A stretch of DNA of 64,000 nt, taken from Alphaproteobacteria bacterium (lineage in GTDB: Bacteria > Pseudomonadota > Alphaproteobacteria > CALKHQ01). The stretch spans positions 3,840,001 through 3,904,000 of the forward strand of contig CBDDFZ010000001.1 of assembly GCA_965227515.1 (NCBI GenBank), read 5' to 3'. Positions within the stretch are counted from its first letter, which is position 1; the number at the start of each line of letters is the position of its first letter. The notes under the pieces were generated by a model. It was given only the letters and a program-made list of their open reading frames with translations. It was not told the origin of the DNA and did no database searches. Of the stretch, positions 9,715 through 64,000 are shown piece after piece. The translations under genes were made by a program, and so were the position numbers.

Positions 9715-10434
9715 ATGGCCGAGATGCTGCAAGTCACGGGTCTCCACACCTTCTATGGACGCATCGAGGCGCTGCGCGGTGTCGACCTGACCGTGGGCGC
9801 CGGCGAGATCGTCACCCTGATCGGCGCCAATGGCGCCGGCAAGACCACCCTGCTGATGACGCTGTGCGGCAGTCCCCGCGCGGCGACCGGCGCCATCGCG
9901 TTCGAGGGCACCGACATCACCACCATGCCGACCCACGAGATCGTCAGGCTGGGCATCGCGCAGTCGCCGGAAGGCCGGCGCATCTTTCCGCGCATGACGG
10001 TCTACGAGAACCTGCTGATGGGCGCGACGCTGGGGGACGCGGAGAATTTCGACGCCGATATCGGACGCGTCTACGACCTGTTTCCGATCCTGAAGAACCG
10101 GCAGAACCAGCGTGGCGGCACGCTTTCCGGCGGCGAGCAACAGATGCTGGCCATCGGGCGCGCGCTGATGAGCCGGCCGCGCCTGCTGCTGCTCGACGAG
10201 CCGTCGTTGGGCCTGGCCCCGATGGTCGTGAAGCAGATTTTTCAAGTCATCCAGGAGATCAACCAGCAACAGAACGTCACCATCCTGCTTGTGGAGCAGA
10301 ATGCGTTTCACGCTCTCAGGCTGGCGCATCGCGGCTACGTCATGGTCAATGGCCGCATCACCATGAGCGGCTCCGGCGCCGATCTGTTGGCCGATCCGGA
10401 AGTGCGCGCCGCCTATCTGGAAGGGGGGCACTGA
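9715..10434 (+). CDS. livF: Branched-chain amino acid ABC ATPase
   Basis: GANGAGKTT, PEGRRIF, LSGGEQQMLAIGRAL, LLDEPSLGLAP. Confidence 0.96.
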   Translation: MAEMLQVTGLHTFYGRIEALRGVDLTVGAGEIVTLIGANGAGKTTLLMTLCGSPRAATGAIAFEGTDITTMPTHEIVRLGIAQSPEGRRIFPRMTVYENLLMGATLGDAENFDADIGRVYDLFPILKNRQNQRGGTLSGGEQQMLAIGRALMSRPRLLLLDEPSLGLAPMVVKQIFQVIQEINQQQNVTILLVEQNAFHALRLAHRGYVMVNGRITMSGSGADLLADPEVRAAYLEGGH

Positions 10435-10439
10435 CACCG

Positions 10440-10841
10440 ATGTTCGATGCCCCGTTCTATTTCGACCTTGGCGCGCTGATCGCGTTCACCATCGGCCTGT
10501 TTGGCTTCCTGTCGTTCATGACCGGGATGTCGGTGGCGCGCAGTTGGCAGTCGATCCGCGCAATCCTGGCCTATAGCCTGTTGTTGGCAGTTGGCGAGCG
10601 CTTCATGGTGCAGGCGATCGTCTTCGACCGTTTCTACATGATCATCGACATCTTCTGGTCGGCCGAGGACGGTTTGAGCCTGGCCTTCGACCTGCACTAT
10701 TTCGTCTCGCTGGCGATTTGCGCCACCATCGGTTCGGTCGCCTATTACGCGACCCGCGCCTCGTTGATGGTGCGCCAATACCCGTGGCTTTACGAGCGCG
10801 CGGGGGTGTTCGGCTGGCGCCTGCGCAAGGGCCACGGCTAG
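10440..10841 (+). CDS. Small membrane protein of alphaproteobacterial liv operons (DUF6867-like)
   Basis: Hydrophobic; C-terminal MVRQYPWLYERAGVFGW; lies between livF and livK. Confidence 0.8.
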   Translation: MFDAPFYFDLGALIAFTIGLFGFLSFMTGMSVARSWQSIRAILAYSLLLAVGERFMVQAIVFDRFYMIIDIFWSAEDGLSLAFDLHYFVSLAICATIGSVAYYATRASLMVRQYPWLYERAGVFGWRLRKGHG

Positions 10842-56690: not shown

Positions 56691-57367
56691 GACTGCCCAC
56701 CACCGCGATTGCCGAGCCCGCGACCGTCCGCCTGATCCCGACCGCCTACTACAAGCCCCCGGTGCTGCGTGCCCTGGTGGACGACGACACCGAACTGGAA
56801 ATCCTGGAACAGCTTGAGGGCCTGACCAACGCCCGCCTGCGCGCCCAGGACACCGGCCTGCCCGACCTCGACGCGCGCGAGTTGGCATTCAAGGCCTGGG
56901 GCCACACCCACATCAACGCCGCGTTCGCCTACACCCGCCCGGATGGCAACCGGTTCAACGACGGGGATCGTGGCGCCTGGTATTGCGCCTTCGACGAACT
57001 GACGGCCATCGCCGAGGTCGGCTTTCACCGCACCAGGGAACTGCACAATATCAACGTCTTCGAGGACGAGGCGGTCTATCAGGCACTGATGGCCGGCTTC
57101 ATGGGCGACTTCGACGACCTGCGCAAGGCGTCGGGGACGCACCCATGCCTGTCGCCGGATACGGCCGTGGGCTACCCCGCCGGCCAGCGATTGGCGCGAG
57201 ACCTGCGCCAGGGCGGTGCCCGTGCGCTGATCTATCCCTCTGTGCGGCGCGACAAGGGCGTCTGCTTGGTCGCTTTCGAGCCGCATTTGGTGCAGAACGT
57301 ACGGCCCGGTGCGCGATGGAAACTGGCCTGGACGGGCACACCGGACTATATGGTCACCACGGCCTAG
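56687..57367 (+). CDS. RES-domain toxin (NAD+-degrading type)
   Basis: R (VRLI), RF..GAWYCA, E (AIAE), S (YPSVR). Confidence 0.9.
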   Translation: MRLPTTAIAEPATVRLIPTAYYKPPVLRALVDDDTELEILEQLEGLTNARLRAQDTGLPDLDARELAFKAWGHTHINAAFAYTRPDGNRFNDGDRGAWYCAFDELTAIAEVGFHRTRELHNINVFEDEAVYQALMAGFMGDFDDLRKASGTHPCLSPDTAVGYPAGQRLARDLRQGGARALIYPSVRRDKGVCLVAFEPHLVQNVRPGARWKLAWTGTPDYMVTTA

Positions 57368-57417
57368 GACAGGCGCACGGCATATGCCGGCATCCGGGCC
57401 GATCCAGAGAAGGCTAC

Positions 57418-57744
57418 ATGACAGCAAGGAACGCCAAGTACGTTATCGGCGACATCGTCAAGCACCGGTTCTTCCCGTTCCGGGGCGTGATCTTCGATGT
57501 CGACCCGGTTTTCGACAACACCGAGGAATGGTGGCTGTCGATCCCGGAGAACGTACGTCCGCGCAAGGACCAGCCGTTCTATCACCTGCTCGCGGTGGGT
57601 GAGGAAGGACCGTACGTCGCCTATGTCTCGGAACAGAACCTGCTGCCCGATGCCGAGAACGGCCCGGTCAAGCACCCGGCGGTGACCGAGGTGTTCAGCG
57701 AACTCTCCGACGGGCGCTACGTTTCGCGGATGACGCTTAATTAA
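57418..57744 (+). CDS. hspQ: Heat shock protein HspQ
   Basis: AKY.IG.IVKH..F.FRGVIFDVDP, DQPFYHLL, AYVSEQNL. Confidence 0.93.
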   Translation: MTARNAKYVIGDIVKHRFFPFRGVIFDVDPVFDNTEEWWLSIPENVRPRKDQPFYHLLAVGEEGPYVAYVSEQNLLPDAENGPVKHPAVTEVFSELSDGRYVSRMTLN

Positions 57745-57802
57745 CGCCGGTCTTTTTTGGCCACTCGCCGTGATCATCGCGCCTCAAGGAAAATGCCAAA
57801 CC

Positions 57803-57892
57803 CGTCATGCCCGCACTTGTTGCGGGCATCCACGAATTGGCGGCTTAGCCGCCAGGAAGACGTGGATGGTCGGGACAAGCCCGACCATGACG
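57803..57892. repeat. CGTC-type REP doublet
   Basis: CGTCATGCCCGCA-CTTGT-TGCGGGCATCCACG and inverted CGTCATGGTCGGG-CTTGT-CCCGACCATCCACG. Confidence 0.85.
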
Positions 57893-57927
57893 AATTGATG
57901 ACGGGACGTTTCCTGCCCTTGGCGTGA

Positions 57928-58908
57928 CTACCCGCCGCCCGCCTGCGCGCGTTCGGCGTGGTGGCAGGCGACCATGTGCGCGCTGCCATTGGCGCCCTTC
58001 AGCCCGCGCAGCTCAGGCACCTCGGCGGCGCAGCGGTCGTCGGCCAGCGGGCAGCGCGGGTGGAAATGGCAGCCGGGCGGCGGCGCCTCCGGGCTCGGCA
58101 TCTCGCCCTTCAGGTTGATGCGCGCGCCACGCGACTTGGGGTCGGGCACCGGGATCGCGGAGATCAGCGCCTGGGTGTAGGGATGCGCCGGCGCGGCGTA
58201 GAGCGCCTTGGCGTCCGCCATCTCGACGATGCGCCCAAGATACATCACCGCCACCCGGTTGGAGATGTACTCCACCACCGACAGGTCGTGCGAGATGAAG
58301 ATATAGGCGAGCCCCATCTCGCGGCGCAGCTCGACCAGCAGGTTCAGGATCTGCGACTGGATCGAGACGTCGAGCGCGGAGACCGGCTCGTCGGCGATCA
58401 CCAGCTTGGGCTTCAACGCGATGGCGCGCGCGATGCCAATGCGCTGGCGCTGGCCGCCGGAAAATTCGTGCGGATAGCGGCTGGCGGCGTCCGCGCCCAG
58501 GCCGACGCGTTCAAGCAGGTCCGCCACCATCTGGCGCCGCTCCGCCCGGTTGCCGACGCCGTGCACCGCGAGCGGCTCGCCAATGATGGACCCGACCTTG
58601 AGCCGCGGGTCCAGCGACGCGAACGGATCCTGGAAGATGAGCTGCATGTGGCGGCGCAACCGGCGCAAGCCGGGCGACGACAGCGCGCGCACGTCGGCCC
58701 CATCGAACATGATGCTGCCGTCGCTGGGCTCGACCAGGCGCAGGATCAGCCGGGCAAGCGTGGACTTGCCGCAGCCGGACTCACCGACGACGCCCAGCGT
58801 CTCGCCAGCCGCCACGGTCAGGCTGGCGCCGTCAACCGCGCGCAACTGGCCGCCGTCGCCGGTGGCGAAGTCCCGGACCAGGCCCTGCACTTCCAGCAAC
58901 GGCGTCAT
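57928..58908 (-). CDS. Peptide ABC ATP-binding protein (OppF/DppF-like)
   Basis: [33 protein letters not shown]. Confidence 0.94.
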
Positions 58909-59945
58909 GTAGCCGGGTTCCAGCATGCAACGGGGTGCGCGGTGCCCTCATCCAAACGCGCCAGTGGCGGGCGTTCGGTGCGGCAGCGGTCCTGCCGGCG
59001 GCTGCAGCGCTCGTAGAAGTGGCACCCCGCCCCTCGGTCGCCGGGGCTCGGCACCATGCCGGGAATACTCGGCAAAACGTCGCCCGATGCATCCGGCCGC
59101 GGGATCGAGGCCAGCAGGCCACGGGTATAGGGATGGCGGGGAGCGGCGAACAGCGTCTCCACCGCGCACTGTTCCACCACCCGGCCGGCGTACATCACCA
59201 CCACCTCGTCGCAGAACCGCGCCACTAGCCCCAGGTCGTGGGTGATCAGCAGCATCGACATCGATTGCTCGGTACTGAGGTCGGCCAGCAGTTCCATGAT
59301 CTGGGCCTGGATGGTGACGTCCAGCGCCGTGGTCGGTTCGTCGGCGATCAGCAGATCGGGGCCGCAGGCGATGGCGATGGCGATCATCACGCGCTGGCGC
59401 AGTCCCCCGCTCAGCTCGTGCGGATATTGCCTCAGCCGGCGCTGGGCGGCGCCGATGCCGACCTGGTGCAGCAGCGCCTCGGCCTGTTGCAGCGCCTCGC
59501 CGCGCGAGATGTCGCGATGCAGCCTCAGCGCCTCGGAAATCTGCGCGCCGACCGTGTAGACCGGGTTCAGGCTGGTCATCGGCTCCTGGAAGATCATGCC
59601 GATGCGGTTGCCGCGCATGCGGCGCATCTGGCTGGCGCTCAGACGCAACAGATCGGTGCCGTCGAACATGACGCGGCTGCCGCGCTCGATCCGCGCCGGC
59701 GGCATCTCCAGCAGCCGCAGGATCGACATGGCGGTCACGCTCTTGCCGCAGCCGCTCTCCCCCACCAGCCCGATGGTGTGCCCGCGCGGCACCGCGAACG
59801 AGACGTCGTCCACCACGCGCACGTGGCCGCCTTCGGTGTTGAAGCCGATCGAGAGGTTCTCGATGGAAAGGAGGGGTGCGGTTGCGGTGGCATCGGTGCC
59901 GGTTGGCACTTCCGCTCGATCGCTATCCTCCAGACCTATACTCAT
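58905..59945 (-). CDS. Peptide ABC ATP-binding protein (OppD/DppD-like)
   Basis: [34 protein letters not shown]. Confidence 0.93.
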
Positions 59946-60123
59946 TGTCGTCCTCGCCCTTGTGGCGAGGACCCATCGCGGTGCGCGGCGGCGGAGCGTC
60001 CCAAGTACATGCCCATTGCATTTGCATGCACTATGAGGCGATCCCATAAACAGCGATAGACATGGGTCTAGGCAGAGTCCTTGGCCACAAATGGACCCTC
60101 GCCACAAGGGCGAGGGCGACAAT
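59944..60123. repeat. GTC-headed hairpin doublet (non-autonomous relative of the GIY-YIG unit)
   Basis: 33-nt inverted repeats (3 mismatches) with a CTTGT loop around a ~115-nt spacer. Confidence 0.85.
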
Positions 60124-60135
60124 TGAGTTTGAAAA

Positions 60136-61077
60136 CTACTCCAGCACCTGGCGCGGGAAGTAGGCCGAGACCACCCAGTTCGGTACGTCGACGATGCAGC
60201 TGATCTTCAGGTCGACGCAGGTGCTGGTCAGCATGTAGGCCTCCACCGGCGCCATGCCGGTCTGCTTGGCCAGCAGGTCGACCATGCCCGAGAGCGCATC
60301 GCGCGCGCCGGTCATCAGGTCGGGGCCGATGCCGGTGGTCACCTCATAGCCCGCGCTGTCGATGTGGTTGGACACCGATCCTGGTACCGTGAAACGCGGA
60401 AACTTCAGGTTGGCGTCCTTCACCAGGTCCAGGCGCACCGCGATGTCCATCGGGCTCTCGATTGCCGTACCGCAGACCTCGCCATCGCCCTGCGCCGCAT
60501 GGGTATCGCCGATGGAAAACAGCCCGCCGGGCACCTCCACCGGCAGATAGAGCGTGGTACCGGCGGTCATGTCGCGAATGTCGATATTGCCGCCGACGCG
60601 GCGCGGCGGCACCACGCTGTGGTGGCCGGGCTCGGCAAGTGCGAGCCCGATGGTGCCGGCGAACGGCCGCAGCGGGATTTTTGCACCCGGGCCATAGAGC
60701 GCCGGGGTCTTGCCGCTGGGGTCGTACTTCCAGATATGCAGCGCCGGGTCCTTGAACTGGTCGGCCAGCAGCCCGAAGCCGGGGATGTTGGCGGTCCAGC
60801 CCCAACCCGAGGGGCCATAGTCGAGCAAGGTGACGGCAATCGCGTCACCCGGCTCCGCCCCGTCGACATAGACCGGGCCGGTGACCGGATTGACCAGCCC
60901 GAAGTCGATGCCCGGCACATCGGCCACCGTCGACGCCGGGGAGAGTTGTCCCCCCGACGCATCGACGGTTTCGAACGCGATCTCGGTGCCCGGCGCCACC
61001 GTCAGCTTGGGCGGGAACGTGTTGTCCCAGCCGTGATGGTGATCATGGGCGTGGATCGTGTGCGCAGCGCTCAGCAT
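60136..61077 (-). CDS. Acetamidase/formamidase family protein
   Basis: [38 protein letters not shown]. Confidence 0.93.
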
Positions 61078-61079
61078 CG

Positions 61080-62723
61080 CTATTCAGCTTCGCACAGGTG
61101 CACGTAGTCGTAGTGGACCGGGATGTGCACCGGGTCGACGAAGATCTCGTCCGGGCCGCAGATCCGCTCCGACTTGAAGGTGAAGCGCTGCTCGTTGAAC
61201 ACCGGCACCCACGGTGCGTCGTCCAGGACGGACATGAAAATGTCCTCCCATTCCTGCAGCCTGAGCTCGGCCTCGTCCGGGTTGGTCATGGCATCCGCCG
61301 CGGCGGCACGCGCGTCCAGTTCCTCGTTGCAGTACCAGGCCCAGTTCCAACCGCCCTGCACCGCGCCACCGCAGCCCAGGATCGGGCCGTAGAAGTTCGA
61401 CGGATCGGGGAAGTCGGCGATCCAGGCCATGCCGCCGGACCAGATCATCGGCGCCTGGTCGGGCTCGCCGCCGGCCGCGATCACCGTCGATTGCGCCAGC
61501 GAGTTGATCTCTGCGTTGATGCCGATCTCAGCCAGATCCTGCTGGATCGCCTGGGCAATGCGCGGGTTGGGATCGGTGTTCATGACATAGAGCTCGGTGT
61601 CGAACCCGTCGGGATACCCCGCTTCGGCCAGTGCCTCGCGGGCCGCGTCAGGCGCATACGGATAGCCGATGTCACCCGGCGCATAGGCCGGCATGGCCGG
61701 CGGCAGCGGCTGGTTGGCCGGCACGGCGCGCCCGTTGATGATGCGCACGATGCGGTCCTTGTTGATCGCCATGTTCACGGCCTGGCGAACCAGCACGTTG
61801 TCGAACGGCGGGATGTTGACGTTCATGGTGACGTAGCCGGTGTGAAGCTGGCCGCCCTCGATCAACTGGTCCTGATAATCCGGGTTGTCGCGGACATCGA
61901 CGAAGCGGGCCGGCGGCACGCCGTCGCCCAGGATGTCGACCTCGCCGTTCTCCAGCCGTAACAGGGCCACCGAGGGATCCTGGCCGACTTCGAACACGAT
62001 CTCGTCCAGCTTCGGCAGATCGGCACGGAAATAGTCGTCGTTGCGCGCGAACACCAGGCGCTGGCCCAGGGTCCATTCGGCCAGACTGTACGCACCGGTG
62101 CCGACCGGGTTCTTGCCGAAGTCGGCGCCGAACTCCTCCACCGCCTCCTGCGGCACGGCAAAGGCGAAGTTGATCGCCAGCACGTGCAGGAACGTTGCGT
62201 CGGGACGCGACAGATGGAACACGACCGTGCGGTCGTCCGGCGTCTCGATGCCGCTCAGTCCGTCGGCTTCGCCGGCGGCGGCGGCATCGAAGCCGTCGAT
62301 CATGCCGAAGAAGCCCTGGCCGGGGCTCAAGGTCTCCGGGTTCACCGTGCGCTCGATCGAATACTTGATGTCGGCGGAGGTCAGCGCGCGGCCATTGTGG
62401 AAGGTCACACCCTCCCGCAGGACGAACGTGTAGGTCAGTCCGTCGCTGGAAATCTCATAGCTCTCGGCCAGGTCGGGGATCAGCTCGGTGCTGCCGGGCT
62501 TGTAGTCCATCAGCCCGTCGAACAGGCTCTTGATCATCGACCAGTTCTGCCAGTCGTAACCAATGGCCGGGTCCAGCGTCGACACGTCGTCGTTGTAGGT
62601 GACGATCATGCTGCCGCCCATCGGCACGTCGGCAAAGGCGGCATCGCCGTCCTGCGCGCTCGCCTGTCCGGCGACGAGCGTCAGCGCCGCAATCGCGGTA
62701 GTGGCGGCAAGGAGTTTGCGCAT
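61080..62723 (-). CDS. Peptide-type ABC substrate-binding protein (family 5)
   Basis: Signal peptide; TLDPA, PDLAES, LREGVTFHNG, PVGTG, VRQAVNMAINK. Confidence 0.94.
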   Translation of the reverse strand: MRKLLAATTAIAALTLVAGQASAQDGDAAFADVPMGGSMIVTYNDDVSTLDPAIGYDWQNWSMIKSLFDGLMDYKPGSTELIPDLAESYEISSDGLTYTFVLREGVTFHNGRALTSADIKYSIERTVNPETLSPGQGFFGMIDGFDAAAAGEADGLSGIETPDDRTVVFHLSRPDATFLHVLAINFAFAVPQEAVEEFGADFGKNPVGTGAYSLAEWTLGQRLVFARNDDYFRADLPKLDEIVFEVGQDPSVALLRLENGEVDILGDGVPPARFVDVRDNPDYQDQLIEGGQLHTGYVTMNVNIPPFDNVLVRQAVNMAINKDRIVRIINGRAVPANQPLPPAMPAYAPGDIGYPYAPDAAREALAEAGYPDGFDTELYVMNTDPNPRIAQAIQQDLAEIGINAEINSLAQSTVIAAGGEPDQAPMIWSGGMAWIADFPDPSNFYGPILGCGGAVQGGWNWAWYCNEELDARAAAADAMTNPDEAELRLQEWEDIFMSVLDDAPWVPVFNEQRFTFKSERICGPDEIFVDPVHIPVHYDYVHLCEAE

Positions 62724-62963
62724 GGTTTCGGTCCCCCGATGATGTTGTTGTGGTCCGTCATCGGGCTAGCAATCGTTGTGCCGGCCCAGGCGGAACCTTG
62801 TCGCGTGCACGGATAGTTGACCACAGCGGGCCGGGTCGCCGCAATGGCGGATAAGCTGCCCGTCCCGCTCCCTTCACGGTGCTGTCAACTCCGGCCAGCC
62901 GGTATGCGCTTGTCTCGCGGCCACGTGGCGCTATCCTCCGTTGCCAGACGATCGGAGCAGTAC

Positions 62964-63401
62964 ATGGACCTTTTGCGTGTCCGCCACTGGCAGGCCCTTG
63001 TTGTCGCCGCGCTTCTTGCGATGGTGCCGATGGCGGCCAACGCGGGCGTGGCGGTGTATGCCGGCACCTATGCCGGCACCTATCGCGCCCAGGTGGATAC
63101 GGTTGAGCGCGGCTCCTGGTGCGCGGTCGTCGATACCGACGGCAGCATTACCGGCATGGTCCATTCCGATGTGACCGGCCGGCAATATCCGTTCAACGGC
63201 ACGGTCACGCGCGACGGCGGCATGGCGATGTCGACCGGGCAGACCGGCGCCGGCAGCATCTTCGCCGGCATGATCGAGGACGACATGAGCGTCTCCGGCA
63301 CCTGGCGCAACGTCTCGGCGCCCGAGCGATTCAACGGCACCTTCGAGGGCGCGCAGGAGCCGCCGGGCACCAACCCGCTCTGCGGCGAACCGGGGGCTTA
63401 G
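62964..63401 (+). CDS. Secreted beta-rich hypothetical protein
   Basis: Signal peptide (ANA); YAGTY.GTY, SGTW, GTF.G motifs. Confidence 0.7.
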   Translation: MDLLRVRHWQALVVAALLAMVPMAANAGVAVYAGTYAGTYRAQVDTVERGSWCAVVDTDGSITGMVHSDVTGRQYPFNGTVTRDGGMAMSTGQTGAGSIFAGMIEDDMSVSGTWRNVSAPERFNGTFEGAQEPPGTNPLCGEPGA

Positions 63402-63417
63402 GCGCGCCAATAACTGC

Positions 63418-63794
63418 CGTCGCCCTCGCACTTGTTGCGAGGGCCCATCGACATGCCAGACTGACTGTCGATGAGCTGTTACGTCTACATCCTTGCGAGC
63501 CGACCGTACGGCACGCTCTATGTTGGCATGACCAACGATCTCATACGTCGTGTCTGGGAGCATCGTGGAGGTCTTGTCGCCGGCTTCACTCGCCAAAACA
63601 ACATCAAACATCTTGTCTATTTCGAGGTTCTCGATACGGCCCCCGATGCAATTCGGCGCGAGAAGAGACTGAAGCAATATCGGAGGGACTGGAAGATCAA
63701 CTTGATCGAGCGCGACAACCCTCACTGGGAGGACCTTTGGCCGACTATCGCGCGTTAGGCGAAATGGGCCCTCGCAACAAGTGCGAGGGCGACG
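63418..63794 (+). mobile_element. Candidate REP-bounded GIY-YIG element
   Basis: Perfect 31-bp inverted repeats CGTCGCCCTCGCACTTGTTGCGAGGGCCCAT (63418-63448 and 63764-63794) bracket one gene. Confidence 0.7.
63471..63758 (+). CDS. Small GIY-YIG nuclease
   Basis: YVYILAS..GTLYVG.T.DL.RR..EH, FT, A..REK.LK..R.WK..LIE..NP.W.DL. Confidence 0.93.
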   Translation: MSCYVYILASRPYGTLYVGMTNDLIRRVWEHRGGLVAGFTRQNNIKHLVYFEVLDTAPDAIRREKRLKQYRRDWKINLIERDNPHWEDLWPTIAR

Positions 63795-63815
63795 AAAATA
63801 TAGGTGCGGGTCTCC

Positions 63816-64000
63816 CTACCCCCGTCGCCGCACCAGCGAGATACGCGGGTCGATGAACGGGGCCAGGAAATCGGCCAGCAGATTGCCGACCAGGATGGCG
63901 AGCGCCGCCACCAGCGTCACGCCCATGATGATCGGGATATCGATGCGCTGGATCGCCTGCCAGGCAAGCTGGCCGATGCCGGGCCAGCCGAACACGGTCT
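63816..64000 (-). CDS. Peptide ABC permease (OppB/DppB-like), 3' end only
   Basis: TVFGWPGIG..DIPIIMG..NLLAD..DPRI. Confidence 0.9.
   Translation of the reverse strand, partial: TVFGWPGIGQLAWQAIQRIDIPIIMGVTLVAALAILVGNLLADFLAPFIDPRISLVRRRG

Follow-up and report, generated by a model that had tools for sequence, protein, structure and literature searches.

The Ssn family of small GIY-YIG nucleases was described in 2025 together with the hairpin repeats that its members cut (Chenal et al. 2025, Nat Commun 16:2388, PMC11893778). As set out there, the family consists of ~94-aa single-domain proteins corresponding to CDD entry cd10448 (GIY-YIG_unchar_3), and SsnA of Neisseria meningitidis binds a CGTC-headed hairpin repeat, named NTS, and makes its cut immediately upstream. 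Cleavage by four homologues (N. meningitidis, N. elongata, N. wadsworthii, and Wolbachia), each assayed on its own repeats, is site-specific, restricted to single-stranded DNA (ssDNA), and confined to one strand sense; double-stranded DNA (dsDNA) and RNA are left uncut. We present here a locus of this kind from a 64,000-nucleotide stretch of DNA of Alphaproteobacteria bacterium (lineage CALKHQ01; GenBank assembly GCA_965227515.1, contig CBDDFZ010000001.1, positions 3,840,001 to 3,904,000). The full 64-kb stretch is referred to as the window, and all coordinates follow its numbering. The element under study is a cassette at positions 63418 to 63794, in which a gene for a 95-aa GIY-YIG protein, ssn, lies between two inverted hairpin repeats. 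Systems of this kind have been in print since March 2025, and the locus is a further member, correctly rediscovered by an earlier note made from the sequence alone.

The same report (PMC11893778) gives a degenerate repeat pattern, SRM, defined from 29 genomes including Azospirillum lipoferum 4B, and finds it in 71% of homologue regions of reference genomes and on both sides in 42%. According to the mutagenesis reported there, cutting is affected by the three nucleotides preceding the palindrome and binding by the C that follows it, and Y6A/Y17A/E64A-type mutants of N. meningitidis SsnA lose cleavage. About half of the copies of the neisserial repeat dRS3 are given as NTS. The NTS-ssnA-NTS arrangement is likened to an insertion sequence (IS), an analogy to RAYT enzymes and REP repeats is drawn, and domestication is proposed, while the idea that the nuclease mobilizes or drives its repeats is put forward as a hypothesis. 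The family is also proposed as a toolbox of ssDNA-specific, sequence-specific nucleases. Besides that report, our literature search found no other paper on the Ssn family.

Other hairpin-associated systems share parts of this layout. RAYT (TnpA-REP) enzymes, which are HUH/Y1 transposases, are likewise encoded by a small single-copy gene flanked by inverted copies of a genome-scattered hairpin repeat (REP, or BIME) and likewise recognize hairpins in ssDNA. They act through a covalent tyrosine intermediate, whereas GIY-YIG nucleases hydrolyze DNA without a covalent enzyme-DNA intermediate; the REP head is GTAG, whereas that of the window repeat is GTC. IS200/IS605 elements also have subterminal hairpins recognized in ssDNA and also make no target duplication, but their HUH enzyme cuts both ends on the same strand ("peel and paste"), whereas the repeats of the window cassette are inverted and the predicted cuts fall on opposite strands. 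Neisserial dRS3/NIME arrays, too, are short intergenic segments between inverted hairpin repeats, in another host lineage and with another repeat sequence. GIY-YIG homing endonucleases combine a catalytic with a DNA-binding domain, unlike the window protein, which has no second domain.

The ssn cassette and its nuclease

We read the SRM-ssn-SRM cassette, with a probability of roughly 0.8, as a resident Ssn nuclease gene with its cognate repeats, whose product, by analogy with the assayed homologues, would act on repeat-bearing ssDNA after hairpin formation, cutting it a few nucleotides 5′ of the GTC head. The nearby gene-less hairpin pairs are dispersed copies of the cassette's repeat family.

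The left SRM-like arm (63418 to 63448, plus strand) and the right arm (63764 to 63794, minus strand) are 31 nt each, 315 nt apart, and 100% complementary, the same hairpin in inverted orientation with both CGTC heads pointing outward. Read 5′ to 3′, an arm consists of CGTC, a 9-bp stem, the loop CTTGT, the return stem, and CCAT. Folding of an arm as ssDNA gives −11.6 kcal/mol, with z scores of −3.6 (left) and −4.7 (right) and none of 200 shuffles equally stable, and the 23-nt hairpin core, with up to three mismatches, occurs three times in the window and not once in 100 shuffles. Between the arms, the ssn open reading frame (ORF; 63471 to 63758, stop codon included, plus strand) is the sole substantial content of the 377-bp unit, separated from them by 22 nt upstream and 5 nt downstream. 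The GC content is 0.542 for ssn, 0.568 for the unit, and 0.658 for the rest of the window. The earlier note had described two identical inverted 31-mers, each a CGTC head plus a CTTGT-loop hairpin, around a 95-aa GIY-YIG gene less GC-rich than its neighbours in a unit containing nothing else, and this description was confirmed throughout. No second ssn copy was found within the window and no target-site duplication around the cassette; promoter-like and terminator-like sites were absent from 62700 to 64000, and Rfam matches from 57000 to 64000.

Pfam domain PF01541 (E = 2.3e-11) covers residues 3 to 77 of the 95-aa window protein, with no extra DNA-binding domain, and no NCBIfam, PADLOC, or PHROG match was found for it. 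Its AlphaFold2 (AF2) model is one compact GIY-YIG domain with a predicted local distance difference test (pLDDT) score of 95.6. The best Protein Data Bank (PDB) folds for the model are UPF0213, Slx1, and UvrC-N GIY-YIG domains, in a structure library that holds no Ssn entry, and the identity to the UPF0213 structures is 27 to 29%. The published homology criterion is a tblastn E value below 1e-10 to Neisseria SsnA, for which the N. gonorrhoeae homologue served as proxy for the N. meningitidis protein. An N. gonorrhoeae record found by tblastn in a 7.3-Gb plasmid collection shows 49.5% identity to the window protein (E = 2e-22), and the pairwise comparison gives 49% (E = 1e-31). This gonococcal locus is taken as the ssnA counterpart because it holds the E64A primer region of the published work and has NTS copies around it. 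Identity is 59% to the A. lipoferum 4B protein and 56% to a Nitrosospira protein, whose flanking repeats are of the NTS type by the hairpin detector described below. Residues Y6, Y17, and E64, numbered on the window protein, are invariant in a 43-sequence alignment that includes it. Supplementary Data 4 of the published report (PMC11893778) flags the genomes of two named best matches, Pelagibius litoralis and Chelatococcus sambhunathii, as having a cd10448 homologue. By its sequence, the window protein is assigned to the Ssn family.

A 79%-identical paralogue is encoded on the same 4.07-Mb contig, so the source genome carries at least two ssn genes. Matches in the phage collection were limited to distant GIY-YIG proteins (37 to 40% identity). 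In the N. gonorrhoeae record (locus L081, 1500 to 1779), the ssn frame runs open to the stop codon from about residue 3 onward. The only ORF listed for it has 71 aa and begins at an internal TTG, and the ATG just upstream belongs to another frame, so this gene may lack an in-frame start.

Like the systems described by Chenal et al. (PMC11893778), the window locus combines a single-domain GIY-YIG protein of ~94 to 95 aa that keeps the three residues named above, a gene bracketed by hairpins whose head is (C/T)GTC and whose palindrome is directly followed by a C, and dispersed gene-less copies clustered around neighbouring genes. Unlike Neisseria NTS, with its 8-bp stem and G-first tetraloop, the window repeat has a 9-bp stem and a CTTGT pentaloop, and its ssn-flanking copies lie outside the degenerate SRM search pattern. 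Unlike the N. gonorrhoeae locus, in which the nearest copies face the gene, the window has a single head-out pair.

The cleavage chemistry and the recognition determinants proposed here are carried over from the assays on the four homologues (PMC11893778), with which the earlier note's suggestion of a small GIY-YIG enzyme tied to CGTC hairpins and cutting them agrees; the role in the source organism in vivo is one that we infer. In a single-stranded state, as during replication, conjugation, transformation, or repair, the repeat would fold into its 9-bp hairpin. The enzyme would bind this hairpin, recognizing the first base of the CCA tail, a C directly 3′ of the stem, and would hydrolyze the strand a few nucleotides 5′ of the hairpin, with the GTC head governing the cut. 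Of the two strands, only the one on which the motif reads from CGTC to CCA would be a substrate, and duplex DNA would stay uncut. Cutting of repeat-bearing ssDNA should modulate recombination and horizontal transfer around repeat-flanked genes, here those of an ATP-binding cassette (ABC) transporter, and the breaks may in addition promote recombination between repeat copies.

Hairpins beside homologous ssn genes

The association between gene and hairpin was examined in the best 80 of at least 600 matching loci, collected at one genome per species from genomes other than that of the window and encoding proteins 52 to 63% identical to the window protein (L numbers are locus labels). An inverted repeat between the 200-bp flanks with a score of at least 14 was present in 51 of 79 testable loci, against 2 of 1,182 control positions shifted by multiples of 1 kb; at a score of at least 20, the counts were 36 of 79 and 0 of 1,182. 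Hairpins were then called by a detector with fixed head and tail and required pairing (GTC, a stem of at least 7 bp, CCA). Head-out hairpins lie upstream of the gene in 49, downstream in 47, and on both sides in 38 of the 80 loci, and the detector finds 139 elements in the 34.4 kb beside the genes, against 182 in 1.26 Mb of background. The association is far above background in these loci, and the enrichment that the earlier note had proposed to look for near homologues is present. The published SRM pattern matches on either side of 27 and on both sides of 15 of the 80 genes, and the NTS consensus on either side of 5 and on both sides of 1 (L079). Upstream hairpins number 20 by the SRM pattern against 49 by the detector; because many flanking hairpins escape it, the pattern is better regarded as a search aid than as a definition.

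An alignment of 28 elements that share one geometry (six window hairpins and 22 elements of 13 loci) has an invariant GTC, first loop base, and CCA, while all nine stem pairs show compensatory changes on both sides. The informative part is this contrast between an invariant head and tail and freely covarying stems, and the invariance of head and tail mirrors the published mutagenesis (PMC11893778). In the loops, the CTTGN pentaloop was assigned to 25 loci and the G-first tetraloop, as in Neisseria, to 27, with 4 mixed, 3 other, and 22 unlabelled. The CTTGN class is mainly alphaproteobacterial (21 of its 25 loci) and includes only one betaproteobacterium. Placed on the nuclease tree, the loop labels require 10 changes, against a mean of 17.7 when shuffled, and none of 500 shuffles was as low. 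Of the co-phylogeny of nuclease and hairpin suggested by the earlier note, the clustering of labels stands, whereas co-evolution of nuclease and loop class is not shown, because host taxonomy confounds the comparison and the tree is poorly resolved (40 of 78 branches unresolved). In one syntenic pair with 96% identical nucleases (L027 and L034), one flanking hairpin differs by a doubly compensated stem change and the other arm is identical, a difference more suggestive of an entire hairpin having been swapped in from another copy than of point mutation.

Several observations weigh against reading the cassette as an Ssn gene with its cognate repeats. Both hairpins flanking ssn in the window fail the published SRM pattern, having GC where W-Y is required after HGTC; one of six window hairpins passes it, the left arm of a gene-less doublet described below (57803 to 57833). 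Hairpins in the opposite orientation lie near 15 loci upstream and 24 downstream, counter to the simple picture, and at the N. gonorrhoeae and A. lipoferum loci the repeats closest to the gene point toward it, so the head-out arrangement is common and not universal. The figure of 99.5% paired for the 28 aligned elements is partly circular because the detector demands pairing. In a protein search that started from the Nitrosospira homologue, none of the top 120 matches was named for Neisseria.

Gene-less doublets and neighbouring genes

The cassette lies among minus-strand genes: an ABC permease (BPD_transp_1, ending at 63816), a substrate-binding protein (SBP; SBP_bac_5, 61080 to 62723), an amidase (FmdA_AmdA, 60136 to 61077), the names being those of Pfam, and an ABC ATPase (58905 to 59945). 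The placement antisense inside an ABC operon given in the earlier note is thus essentially right; it overlooked a co-oriented orphan ORF of 145 aa (62964 to 63401, plus strand), directly upstream of ssn on the same strand, between the cassette and the SBP gene. No Pfam, PADLOC, or PHROG match was found for this ORF, and a single homologue (71% identity) was found among 5.8 billion clusters. Its start is signal-peptide-like.

The two related hairpin pairs without a gene that had been reported in the window were both found. Doublet A (57803 to 57892; arms 57803 to 57832, plus strand, and 57863 to 57892, minus strand) lies just beyond the last ATPase gene, and doublet B (59946 to 60121; arms 59946 to 59975, plus strand, and 60092 to 60121, minus strand) fills the junction between amidase and ATPase. 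In both, the CGTC heads point outward, as in the gene-bearing pair. The detector reports 13 elements in the window, namely the six hairpins of cassette and doublets plus seven others, six of which are at the 7-bp minimum, against 0 to 6 in shuffled windows; it replaced a looser hairpin detector that gave 219 matches in the window and was too permissive. No cassette-type hairpin was found elsewhere in the 64 kb.

Doublet A has a third small palindrome at about 57838 to 57854, between its two hairpins, and a 106-nt stretch containing it folds into three hairpins (−35 kcal/mol, z −7.3). At doublet B (59937 to 59975), hairpin and ATPase gene adjoin with no spacer, the ATG coming 1 nt behind the hairpin head, and a Shine-Dalgarno-like run occurs before it only as GAGGA inside the hairpin stem; an mRNA hairpin there could therefore influence how the ATPase is translated.

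Movement of cassettes and competing explanations

The window operon (permease, permease, SBP gene, amidase, ATPase) is syntenic with replicons of Skermanella, Rhizobium, Shinella, Sinorhizobium, Paracoccus, and others. In 15 of 15 listed syntenic replicons, the alignment falls into two pieces that leave out ~1.06 to 1.12 kb of the window, and the permease and SBP genes are adjacent, with no orphan ORF between them. The permease and SBP genes are 57 bp apart in Skermanella rosea pSR-1 and 1,092 bp apart in the window, where the extra DNA (~1.09 kb) consists of the cassette and the 145-aa orphan ORF and has no hairpin at its left edge. The gap between amidase and ATPase is 2 bp in pSR-1 against 190 bp in the window, where it is filled by doublet B. 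Synteny is lost beyond the last ATPase, and doublet A thus has no empty-site comparison. A second filled site is found in A. lipoferum 4B (L082, 1354 to 1972), in which a doublet-ssn-doublet block of ~530 bp lies between sufB and sufC. These two genes are adjacent, with a short spacer and no ssn block, in A. ramasamyi (flanks 96.3% identical), A. oryzae, B510, and other Azospirillum, and neither of the two spacers read (A. ramasamyi and B510) contains a hairpin or half-site. Another A. lipoferum assembly is listed without an ssn homologue in Supplementary Data 4 of PMC11893778. The empty sites in relatives for which the earlier note had proposed a search exist, at Skermanella-type operons and at sufB-sufC; the contrasts are between species or genera and concern old events, and insertion and deletion cannot be separated.

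Cassettes have also been inverted. Among nine syntenic groups (28 loci), three contain the cassette both ways round against conserved flanks. For the two inversions examined, both from Bradyrhizobium (L023 versus L031 and L070; L018 versus L040 and L052; about 9940 to 10480 in each locus), the breakpoints are at the flanking hairpins, which suggests flipping through recombination between the inverted repeats.

These observations bear on a reading that is compatible with the Ssn reading and does not exclude it, in which the cassette is an autonomous IS-like element, the GIY-YIG enzyme acts as its transposase and drives the repeats as RAYTs are thought to drive REPs, and the gene-less doublets are non-autonomous derivatives. 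The earlier note's candidate autonomous driver, with a GIY-YIG enzyme in place of the HUH enzyme, is a reading of this kind. We consider it possible, although improbable. Terminal inverted repeats around one small gene, in compact units of 353 to 589 bp in the 38 loci with both arms (377 bp in the window), fit such an element, as do the insertion-like state at both junctions of the window relative to all listed syntenic replicons, the presence and absence between sufB and sufC, and the inversion in three groups. Adjacent background pairs are predominantly head-out (39, against 16, 7, and 2 in the other orientations), forming doublets of ~80 to 135 bp, and an IS-like architecture was noted in the published report (PMC11893778). 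The GC content of ssn is below that of its flanks in 80 of 80 loci, by 10 points on average, which also agrees with a mobile element, but the offset tracks host GC (0.549 versus 0.653 for the surroundings in 54 high-GC hosts; 0.32 versus 0.396 in 8 low-GC hosts) and so gives no pointer to recent transfer.

Against such an element, 34 of 38 cassettes have no target-site duplication, as in a shuffled null (0.92). Some ssDNA transposons likewise make no target duplications. Protein pairs of at least 78% identity are mostly syntenic (20 of 26), the other six having no shared flanks and two of those loci (L003 and L028) being on short contigs, and the divergence of orthologous cassettes is similar to that of their flanks (75% versus 78 to 82% identity). 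No near-identical cassette copies in different contexts were found among the 80 loci, a weak test at one genome per species. The ~1.09-kb block in the window, moreover, includes the unrelated orphan ORF and lacks a repeat at its left boundary, and the cassette itself contains no promoter-like site. Published SsnA cuts ssDNA only and in one strand sense (PMC11893778). With inverted repeats, this gives one cut per strand per cassette, so that no strand would be released on both sides. Without a covalent intermediate, strand transfer would need host functions, which likewise counts against an element moved by its own nuclease. The evidence on mobility is mixed: cassettes and doublets have moved in evolutionary time, and nothing shows the nuclease as the mover.

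If the hairpins were ordinary REP-like elements (transcript-stabilizing, terminator, or protein-binding) and the nuclease a generic housekeeping enzyme of the UPF0213/YhbQ kind, their proximity would be incidental. The closest solved structures are indeed UPF0213 proteins (BH0048 and EF2693), and the positions of the repeats, at gene ends and between operon genes, resemble those of REPs; but the association far above background in 80 loci, the 27 to 29% identity to UPF0213 structures against 49% to the Neisseria homologue, the lack of terminator-like sites and Rfam matches in the regions given above, and the direct binding and cleavage published for homologues (PMC11893778) make this very improbable. 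A selfish homing gene, which would cut the empty allele and be copied in by repair and whose hairpins would be remnants of the homing site, is no more credible. The fold itself speaks for it, as do the presence and absence at a fixed site in Azospirillum and the two orientations at one site in Bradyrhizobium. GIY-YIG is a classic homing-endonuclease fold. The 95-aa protein, however, has no DNA-binding domain beyond the catalytic core, the empty Azospirillum sites read are without hairpin or half-site, the repeats are dispersed as many gene-less copies, and the homologues assayed by Chenal et al. do not cut dsDNA (PMC11893778). What remains preferred is a resident Ssn gene with cognate repeats.

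As far as searched, the filled and empty sites of cassettes and doublets, the doublet in a 2-bp junction, and the inversions were not found in print, and they are modest additions to the published picture. A bolder proposal is that cassettes and gene-less doublets are still-active mobile DNA driven by a hydrolytic GIY-YIG ssDNA nuclease, rather than by an HUH or DDE enzyme. Such DNA would enter tight intergenic junctions of operons with no duplication of the target, flip between its own hairpins, and trade hairpins among copies. We regard this as unlikely; if true, Ssn would be the first non-HUH "REP driver."

The earlier note read the logic of the system from raw sequence alone, and experiments described that system only in 2025; its anatomy is thus recognizable on sight. 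The locus adds to the family a repeat variant with a CTTGN pentaloop and a 9-bp stem, common in Alphaproteobacteria and partly missed by the published pattern. Since this enzyme-repeat pair has a distinct hairpin, it is a candidate for a new specificity. The filled and empty sites, together with the inversions, make the question of whether ssn cassettes are domesticated or mobile more approachable.

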